Of a DNA stretch of 5,682 bases, positions 4,155 to 5,682 are shown in pieces. The number at the start of each line of letters is the position of its first letter. Position 1 is the first letter of the stretch. The notes under the pieces were generated by a model that worked only from the letters and a program-made list of their open reading frames with translations, was not told the origin of the DNA and made no database searches. Location: IMG/VR virus record IMGVR_UViG_2663762945_000009; one strand, given 5' to 3'. Source of the DNA: a virus (taxonomy: Duplodnaviria; Heunggongvirae; Uroviricota; Caudoviricetes). A program made the translations under genes and the position numbers.

Positions 4155-4470
4155 GCAACCAGATAAGGGTGTTGCGCTGCTTATGCTCTATGAAGTAGGC
4201 ATAAACACCCAGCAGCATTTTGGAATAACCGACACGGGCAGACTTCACCACATTCACCTCACGGATGTAGTCGCTGCCCATCGCATTCATGATGGCCCGC
4301 TGAAAGGGCAGTGTTTCCCAGCGCCCTTCCTGGTATGCGGATTCTTTCGGGAGATAGTAATTGGCATCCGCCCATTCAACGGCGGTCTGTGGCTCCGGCC
4401 TGAACAGTGAGCGAAGCCCGGCGCGGACAAAATGCCGCAGCCTGTTAACCTGACTGTTCGATATATTCAC
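4155..4470 (-). pseudogene. A: Terminase large subunit A, N-terminal ~105 codons only
   Basis: From GTG at 4468-4470 the - strand encodes MNISNSQVNRLRHFVRAGLRSLFRPEPQTAVEWADANYYLPKESAYQEGRWETLPFQRAIMNAMGSDYIREVNVVKSARVGYSKMLLGVYAYFIEHKQRNTLIWL. It overlaps the Nu1 stop as in lambda. Homology ends at ~4155; this N-terminal piece is the Nu1-interacting region, and the ATPase and nuclease domains are missing. Confidence 0.85.
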
Positions 4471-4990
4471 TCAGCAACCCCGGTATCAGTTCATCCAGCG
4501 CGGCTGCTTTGTTCATGGCTTTGATGATATCCCGTTTCAGGAAATCAACATGTCGGTTTTCCAGTTCCGGAAAACGCCGCTGCACCGACAGGGGGATCCC
4601 GTCGAGAATACTGGCAATTTCACCTGCGATCCGCGACAGCACGAAAGTACAGAATGCGGTTTCCACCACTTCAGCTGAGTCTCTGGCATTCTTCAGTTCC
4701 TGTGCGTCGGCCTGCGCACGCGTAAGTCGATGGCGTTCGTACTCAATAGTCCCTGGCTGGAGATCTGCCTCGCTGGCCTGGCGCAGTTCTTCAACCTCCC
4801 GGCGCAGCTTTTCGTTCTCAATTTCAGCATCCCTTTCGGCATACCATTTTATAACGGCGGCAGAGTCATAAAGCACCTCATTACCCTTGCCACCGCCTCG
4901 CAGAACGGGCATTCCCTGTTCCTGCCAGTTCTGAATGGTACGGATACTCGCACCGAAAATGTCAGCCAGCTGCTTTTTGTTGACTTCCAT
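4445..4990 (-). CDS. Nu1: Terminase small subunit Nu1, full length
   Basis: 181-aa ORF MEVNKKQLADIFGASIRTIQNWQEQGMPVLRGGGKGNEVLYD...SEYIEQSG with intact start and stop. It matches lambda Nu1 as I recall it. It lies immediately downstream (on the - strand) of cosB. Confidence 0.9.
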   Translation of the reverse strand: MEVNKKQLADIFGASIRTIQNWQEQGMPVLRGGGKGNEVLYDSAAVIKWYAERDAEIENEKLRREVEELRQASEADLQPGTIEYERHRLTRAQADAQELKNARDSAEVVETAFCTFVLSRIAGEIASILDGIPLSVQRRFPELENRHVDFLKRDIIKAMNKAAALDELIPGLLSEYIEQSG

Positions 4991-5167
4991 TGTTCATTCC
5001 ACGGCCAAAAACAGAGAAAGGAAACGACAAAGGCCCAAAAGTTCGTTTTCAGCACCTGTCGTTTCCTTTCTTTTCAGGGGGTATTTTAAATAAAAACATT
5101 AAGTTACGACGAAGAAGAACGGAAACGCCTTAAACCGGAAAATTTTCATAAATAGCGAAAACCCGCG
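4991..5167 (-). promoter_or_regulatory. cosB-like terminase-binding region (R-site repeats)
   Basis: Three R-element-like repeats of the cgtttcc(t/g)ttc(t) type at ~5012-5033, ~5054-5071 and ~5110-5126, between cosN and the Nu1 start. This is the layout of lambda cosB. Confidence 0.6.
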
Positions 5168-5179
5168 AGGTCGCCGCCC
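5168..5179. other. cosN cohesive-end sequence (12 nt)
   Basis: aggtcgccgccc is the reverse complement of the lambda 12-nt cohesive end GGGCGGCGACCT. Sequence beyond 5180 resembles the lambda right end (cosQ side), so the two genome ends are joined here as in a prophage or concatemer. Confidence 0.7.
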
Positions 5180-5378
5180 CGTAACCTGTCGGATCGCCGG
5201 AAAGGACCCGAAAAATGATAATGATTATCATCTGCATGTCACAACGTGCATCTACGCCATCAAACCACGTCAAATAATCAATTATGACGCAGGTATCGTA
5301 TTAATTGATCTGCATCAACTTAACGTAAAAACAACTTCAGACAATACAAATCAGCGACACTGAATACGGGACAACCTC

Positions 5379-5612
5379 ATGTCAACGAAGAACAGAACCC
5401 GCAGAACAACAACCCGCAACATCCGCTTTCCTAACCAAATGATTGAACAAATTAACATCGCTCTTGATCAAAAAGGGTCCGGGAATTTCTCAGCCTGGGT
5501 CATTGAAGCCTGCCGCCGGAGACTGTGCTCAGAAAAAAGAGTTTCTCCTGAAGCAAACAAAGAAAAGAGTGACATTACTGAATTGCTCAGAAAACAGATC
5601 AGACCAGATTGA
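5379..5612 (+). CDS. Hypothetical small basic protein (77 aa), possible ribbon-helix-helix DNA-binding fold
   Basis: ORF MSTKNRTRRTTTRNIRFPNQMIEQINIALDQKGSGNFSAWVIEACRRRL... has a basic N-terminus, then a short beta-like segment (NIRFP) and two helix-like segments. Only a weak GGGA Shine-Dalgarno ~7 nt upstream. It lies in sequence resembling the lambda right-end region; whether it is expressed is unknown. Confidence 0.35.
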   Translation: MSTKNRTRRTTTRNIRFPNQMIEQINIALDQKGSGNFSAWVIEACRRRLCSEKRVSPEANKEKSDITELLRKQIRPD

Positions 5613-5682
5613 AGCAATTTAGATAATCGTGCAGACTACGCTCCCTCATATCACATGGAAGGTACTACAATGGCTCAGGTTG

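Follow-up and report, generated by a model that had tools for sequence, protein, structure and literature searches.

The stretch of DNA analysed here (the window; 5,682 nucleotides) reads the lambda-type packaging region in reverse. The gene for the small terminase subunit Nu1 was located at 4445..4990 on the minus strand (Phage_Nu1, E = 9e-101; 99.1% DNA identity to lambda nu1), and the 12-nt cohesive-end sequence cosN, the reverse complement of GGGCGGCGACCT, was found at 5168..5179 on the same strand, 100% identical to the lambda end junction. A GGGTCCT element at 5203..5209 (minus strand) aligned to lambda 48473-48479, and we take it to be cosQ. Beyond it lie a perfect 17-bp palindrome, ATGATAAT-G-ATTATCAT, at 5215..5231, and on the plus strand a conserved promoter-proximal leader (5281..5378), an open reading frame (ORF) at 5379..5612 that is transcribed divergently from Nu1, and the start of a ydfO-like DUF1398 gene (5670..5682; Pfam DUF1398, E = 3e-43), which is cut by the window end. 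The segment 4155-5682 is collinear with the intact prophage L001 and 100% identical to it. The adjoining segment 2889-4160 is a patchwork of head-gene pieces from the portal and protease region, some of them inverted when compared with L001, and the segment 298-3008 looks like an invertible tail-fibre segment, with a tail-fibre C-terminal gene and assembly gene on the plus strand, an alternative pair on the minus strand and a fragment of a Pin-like recombinase. No complete E. coli genome in the collection covered at least 80% of the window in one place, and this prophage copy is rearranged and defective.

The ORF at 5379..5612 starts with ATG and comprises 77 codons plus a TGA stop, and its place in the ORF list agreed with the earlier note, which had described a 77-aa ORF facing away from cos. 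The same note had put it beside cosQ; it is indeed near the cosQ-position element, but the two are 170 bp apart and do not overlap. The product is basic (pI 10.55; 17 Lys and Arg against 9 Asp and Glu), and its N-terminus is Arg/Thr-rich as claimed, with four Arg and five Thr among residues 1-14. We found that it matched Pfam PF13132 (DUF3950) with 74.8 bits (E = 5e-21; cut-off, 25 bits), NCBIfam NF041551 (YlcI/YnfO family protein) with 35.7 bits (cut-off, 30 bits) and PHROG 949 with E = 8e-34. Both motifs of the DUF3950 family, K/R-x-I-R-F-P and N-F-S-A-W-V-x-E/D-A-C, are present, as R13-N-I-R-F-P18 and N36-F-S-A-W-V-I-E-A-C45, and R16 and F37 were invariant in all 34 members aligned. Moreover, in E. 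coli DNA that is 100% identical, RefSeq names the ORF ynfO, YlcI/YnfO family protein. The window protein is a direct member of this family (the K-12 genes are ynfO in Qin and ylcI in DLP12) and is 95-96% identical to proteins that bear the family name; adjacency to a Nu1 homologue and a DUF1398 neighbour are shared as well, and there is no substantive difference. The window ORF is thus a real prophage gene of the already catalogued YlcI/YnfO (DUF3950) family, and we refer to it as ynfO. The libraries searched assign no function or fold to this family, and no published function, binding site or phenotype of ynfO, ylcI or DUF3950 was found in the literature.

Seventeen ORFs of at least 77 aa are present in the window, many of them plainly spurious, and therefore length alone is no proof of a gene. 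The earlier note had left room for a chance ORF, whose conservation would then come from cis-acting DNA flanking cos and not from a protein. Two observations are compatible with this. The Nu1-cos-ORF block is 95-99% identical among lambda-type phages, so that comparisons among these alone cannot separate coding constraint from cos-flank constraint, and the reference record of lambda does not annotate the ORF: the lambda homologue is a 64-codon ORF, complement(48109..48303), with the window ATG aligned to lambda 48303, and positions 47945 to 48502 of NC_001416 are free of annotated features. For the lambda record it is accordingly correct that this DNA counts as non-coding, whereas E. coli RefSeq genomes do annotate the ORF. 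The copies next to an HNH endonuclease gene, on the other hand, have wholly different flanks and yet keep the reading frame. In codons 1-50, the window and Lys8385Vzw differ at 22 synonymous and 8 non-synonymous sites (pS 0.64, pN 0.069, ratio 0.11); the ratio was 0.14 against BP-4795, and across copies in differing genomic backgrounds pS was 0.50-0.67, pN 0.05-0.09 and the ratio 0.08-0.17. As a control, the two other forward frames of the identical DNA gave ratios from 1.05 to 7.6. Homologues with 30-54% identity also occur in other genera, away from cos. These comparisons, which had been proposed as a check of the ORF, demonstrate strong purifying selection on its codons 1-50; the chance-ORF option is effectively refuted, and we give it almost no credence. 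The DNA of window positions 5100-5682 matched 4635 of the 5426 complete E. coli genomes (about 85%), at a median of 2 places per genome and up to 13.

All eight phage-type copies examined were found between the lysis and packaging genes, immediately upstream of the first packaging gene, and on the strand opposite to the late operon. Four of them adjoin Nu1 (this window together with L001, lambda, 2H10 and a variant, P0036), while the four HNH-type copies (BP-4795, Lys8385Vzw, a prophage in E. coli CP027459 and a variant, P0107) are located 41 bp from the HNH endonuclease gene that precedes TerS-TerL. The far side differs among copies: some variants have a DUF1398 gene there, and others have no same-strand gene. 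In L001, 57 nt separate the ynfO stop from the start of the DUF1398 gene, and direct reading of the sequence between them revealed no hairpin or T-run; in the window, the two genes are probably co-transcribed. The K-12 gene ydfO has been reported to be stress-inducible (PMC4077768). The BP-4795 copy has a strong Shine-Dalgarno sequence and, about 130 nt after its stop, a hairpin with a T-run, and it therefore looks like a self-contained accessory unit. With respect to the marks of a phage moron, we thus found antisense orientation in 8/8 copies, the hairpin of BP-4795, and a window copy that has no consensus promoter. In lambda, the DUF1398 gene is lambdap78, which was labelled 'head protein' in the record copy examined, and the opposite-strand gene lambdap79 lies in the 533-bp gap between lambdap78 and the unannotated ORF. 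A CRISPRi study scored lambdap79 as essential, while earlier literature describes it as non-essential (PMC10695390); this score may have arisen through polarity on the late transcription that runs into cos and nu1.

The conserved core of the protein is encoded by codons 1-50 (5379..5528, plus strand), and carries a basic arm, a beta-strand at about residues 12-18 (T-R-N-I-R-F-P), a helix at 19-32, a G-S-G-N turn and a helix at 37-52. The remaining residues, 51-77 (5529..5609, plus strand), form a variable C-terminal tail, a weakly predicted helix (pLDDT 54-59). These tails vary among family variants, and a mosaic junction lies at the start of the tail, where identity to lambda drops from 96% (codons 1-50) to 76% with gaps. 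The AlphaFold monomer model, for which a cleaned alignment of 34 family sequences was the input, had a pLDDT of 78-87 over residues 11-50, with an extended segment at 14-18 and helices at 19-32 and 37-52. An independent model of the satellite homologue P0259, which is 28% identical to the window protein (alignment A7), showed a strand at 8-13 and helices at 16-29 and 35-52. A strand-helix-helix topology in about 45 residues was thus predicted for both proteins, and the beta-helix-helix arrangement that the earlier note had read from the sequence, with structure prediction as its suggested check, reappeared in the models in the order of ribbon-helix-helix (RHH) proteins.

The agreement in predicted topology was not matched by a significant hit to RHH proteins in the structure and profile searches. 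Foldseek against PDB and BFVD gave no usable match, and none of the three alignments used for profile HMM searches of PDB produced a significant hit; the best match was a CopG-family RHH protein, in register, with E = 0.6, and a core-only profile matched no RHH protein in PDB. Pfam RHH_6 was touched by only one of the 34 members (E = 0.09). With hhalign, nothing was obtained against CopG, and a single 22-residue stretch was obtained against Arc at a probability of 4%. A sequence-profile relationship of DUF3950 to the RHH family was therefore not detected with PDB profiles, Pfam or hhalign. The stretch aligned to Arc places T12-R-N14-I-R16-F-P on Q9-F-N11-L-R13-W-P, so that the window N-I-R-F-P is in register with N-L-R-W-P of Arc, and N14 and R16 coincide with the base-contacting Asn11 and Arg13. 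Gln9, Asn11 and Arg13 are the operator-reading residues of Arc (PMC12645479). Altogether, the models make RHH the best structural hypothesis for the window protein, as a prediction and not as demonstrated homology, and a ribbon-helix-helix domain is the most likely structure of the conserved residues 1-50.

The leader at 5281..5378 is retained in all lambda-type copies, even in the L091/L092 variant, which has lost cosN and 43 bp upstream. The Shine-Dalgarno sequence of the window ORF is weak (GGGA at 5368-5371, 7 nt from the ATG), and a promoter scan identified no plus-strand consensus sigma-70 site upstream of the ORF. The scan did return a minus-strand site at 5242-5215 (GTGACA-16 nt-TATCAT, 10/12 matches) that points toward cos and nu1 and whose -10 overlaps the 17-bp palindrome; we know of no promoter at this position in lambda. 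The palindrome (5215-5231) sits 6 bp from the cosQ-position element and is the sole perfect one in the window with arms of 8 or more and a spacer of 3 or less, a result reached by 19 of 2000 shuffles. Among the copies its arms are conserved while the centre base is G, A or T, and it is retained in the variant without cosN. It is thus a candidate protein-binding site, with nothing in the sequence that ties it to YnfO over terminase or a host factor. Repeat statistics for the 150-bp upstream regions of three copies (window, BP-4795 and Lys8385Vzw) did not rise above chance, and an Rfam search of the window gave no match.

A DUF3950 search of 1.84 billion representative proteins returned only 182 clusters, and most of these, which were discarded, came from frameshifted reads of lambda control DNA. 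Such noisy reads inflate the apparent diversity of DUF3950 proteins, and lambda right-end DNA was also found in dozens of unrelated assemblies (Streptomyces, Pseudomonas, Cohnella, Pedobacter, an Arcanobacterium 'plasmid' and others), with many contigs of about 3.5 kb; these scattered copies are almost certainly contamination with lambda control DNA. About 30 genuine divergent members were left, all from Enterobacterales. About 19 of their 27 genomic loci share a layout in which an integrase gene, usually with an AlpA-like gene (its identity as AlpA was confirmed), lies downstream and is convergent with the DUF3950 gene, while upstream, and divergent from it, there is a small Icd-like gene and then a primase operon. 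Loci with this layout are P4/PICI-type satellites, and their DUF3950 genes face the promoter region of the main operon. A few members are chromosomal orphans: those in L080 (Rouxiella; 6001-6180) and L081-L083 lie outside any recognisable phage or satellite, one directly after cytochrome bd oxidase genes and another with fimbrial usher/chaperone genes on one side and a type I restriction-modification system on the other. Unannotated DUF3950-like ORFs were also seen in L011 (LR881103, 'phage vB_KppS-Ant'; 4001-4174) and L012 (OR544138, 'Pasteurella phage Pmp7'; 4001-4159), two satellite-like records of 10-16 kb with integrase and primase and a capsid or large terminase gene. In each record a long CDS has been annotated across the ORF on the other strand; in L011 this CDS extends over the promoter and repeat region as well, and is probably a misannotation there.

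Iterated 11-12-bp motifs occur at conserved positions within the 150 bp that precede the DUF3950 start in the satellites: two to four copies are spaced at about 21-24 bp, and a further one covers the -10 of the DUF3950 gene itself. CTTGAC, the would-be -35 of the leftward promoter, directly adjoins the second copy. The motif is uniform within an element and different between elements. In 6 of 12 satellite regions the exact repeats were reached by at most 5 in 1000 shuffles, and by a count measure three further regions lie above, or nearly above, their shuffles. The motif class tracks residue x of the strand K-x-I-R-F, which is the position of Arc Asn11: (T/A)AACAC-type motifs go with G, GTGC...CCACAC motifs with K, and GTAC/GCGC palindromes with N. 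Since gene and motif are physically linked, this co-variation is only suggestive. The clearest individual example is the capsid-encoding satellite in L003 (E. coli CP027459, 3711563-3727925), which contains an integrase, an AlpA-like gene, two DUF3950 genes, a primase and its own TerS. It is inserted in terL of a BP-4795-like prophage, which itself carries a DUF3950 gene next to HNH. This arrangement matches the helper-embedded satellites described previously (PMC10111431). Upstream of the 60-aa paralogue in this satellite, two perfect TGGTACGTACCA palindromes bracket TATAAT and end at the ATG, whereas the 120-aa paralogue has, after a hairpin, four to five copies of GTT(T/A)AACAC. Two different repeat sets, each upstream of its own paralogue, make primase iterons an unlikely source and argue for recognition of its own promoter by each protein. 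Judged from these patterns, the repeats over DUF3950 promoters seem operator-like and element-specific. The motifs GGTACGTACCA and GTGTGCGCACA, from the satellites with the most phage-like strand, are absent from the window, and direct sharing of operators between phage and satellite is therefore unsupported. The satellite genes occupy a slot analogous to that of Stl/Rpr in Gram-positive PICIs, divergent from the replication and packaging operon and with repeats that overlap both divergent promoters; they differ from Stl/Rpr in fold and size, and the window gene is phage-borne, not satellite-borne. In Gram-negative PICIs, AlpA has been reported as an activator, and the existence of a repressor has been called unclear (PMC6092414).

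In two satellite proteins, P0259 (the 120-aa paralogue of L003) and P0208, DUF3950 is naturally fused to the DNA-binding domain that forms the N-terminus of a Terminase_2 small subunit. Each of the two domains exceeds its Pfam cut-off, and the terminase-type domain of P0259 was predicted with a pLDDT of 93-98. This domain is 64-66% identical to TerS residues 2-54 of BP-4795-type phages, the phages that carry a DUF3950 gene beside HNH-TerS, and 53% identical to the satellite's own TerS. The fusions and their match to helper-type TerS keep a packaging-related role alive as a rival, in which the window protein would be an accessory factor that binds cos-adjacent DNA, such as the palindrome, and assists terminase or tunes its action when packaging is initiated or terminated. 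The adjacency of all phage-type copies examined to packaging genes of two unrelated modules (Nu1/A and HNH-TerS-TerL) and the closeness of the conserved palindrome to the cosQ-position element point the same way. However, the gene lies antisense to the terminase transcript in every phage copy examined, so its orientation does not fit a gene that the late transcript would express together with terminase, and its expression should drop at the time when packaging occurs. Moreover, most of the divergent members lie by the integrase and primase of satellites or are chromosomal orphans far from any cos or terminase gene, and the lysis-packaging junction is a general site for accessory genes, at which bor and the DUF1398 gene are also found. 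On this evidence we regard a packaging factor as unlikely.

A further rival is that the window protein is the antitoxin of the downstream DUF1398 protein, with an autoregulating RHH domain and a variable C-terminal tail that would neutralise the partner. A DUF1398 gene follows in some variants, but, in contrast to the CopG/ParD/TacA-type RHH antitoxins and plasmid regulators, we found no conserved co-directional toxin-like partner: HNH-type phage copies and satellite copies lack one, and the DUF1398 gene of lambda is separated from the ORF by the 533 bp and the opposite-strand gene described above. A PADLOC search, which covers defence and toxin-antitoxin models, gave no meaningful match for either protein, and YdfO overexpression has been cited as raising resistance to oxidative stress, with no description of it as toxic (PMC4077768). 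An antitoxin function is accordingly very doubtful. A Mnt-like role over nearby KilA-N/Ant genes was also considered and dropped, because no divergent coupling links these genes to the ORF and they are missing from lambda. Taking the satellites into account, DUF3950 proteins might be element-specific, operator-binding repressors in a large class of Gram-negative P4/PICI-type satellites, with the lambdoid relatives beside cos (the unannotated lambda ORF among them) engaged in helper-satellite conflict and the TerS fusions acting as decoys or tethers where the helper packages its DNA; we hold this wider proposal to be improbable as a whole.

We consider it rather probable that the window protein is a lysogeny-phase RHH regulator, made by the quiescent prophage, which acts as a dimer and represses the small unit to which it belongs. 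In such a dimer, the N-terminal strands of the two subunits would form a two-stranded sheet that inserts into the major groove of DNA; contacts to bases and phosphates would be made by the polar strand residues T12, N14 and R16 and by the basic arm rich in Arg and Thr. Because the gene points against the late operon, we infer that ynfO is expressed in the quiescent prophage from its own, weak promoter, and it would be silenced after induction by convergent late transcription. YnfO may thus be a small transcriptional repressor or autoregulator of the unit formed by ynfO and the DUF1398 gene, perhaps with other targets, and autoregulation could possibly operate through the conserved palindrome at 5215-5231. 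Arc and Mnt of phage P22 are likewise small, basic and phage-borne, with the same order of elements, and the mnt gene is embedded among late genes and read against them, as the window gene is. The window protein differs from them in that it has no significant sequence similarity to them by hhalign, and its gene has neither a divergently coupled antirepressor gene nor a defined operator.

Taken together, these results show that the reference annotation of lambda, the best-studied temperate phage, omits a gene under selection 200 bp from cos. To the catalogued family, the present analysis adds a fold assignment at the level of prediction, the proof of selection, the antisense placement that is kept next to packaging modules of two kinds, and a further habitat of DUF3950 in satellites, where operator-like repeats and terminase-domain fusions accompany it. 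Placement in the RHH class gives DUF3950 a testable role, that of a lysogeny-phase regulator. If the protein is only an autoregulated accessory regulator, the result would be an ordinary one, and the annotation gap would still be fixed. In the satellites, DUF3950 in the regulatory slot is a concrete candidate for satellite silencing and helper recognition, and if its reading as a satellite repressor is true, DUF3950 would be the 'missing' repressor of Gram-negative satellites.
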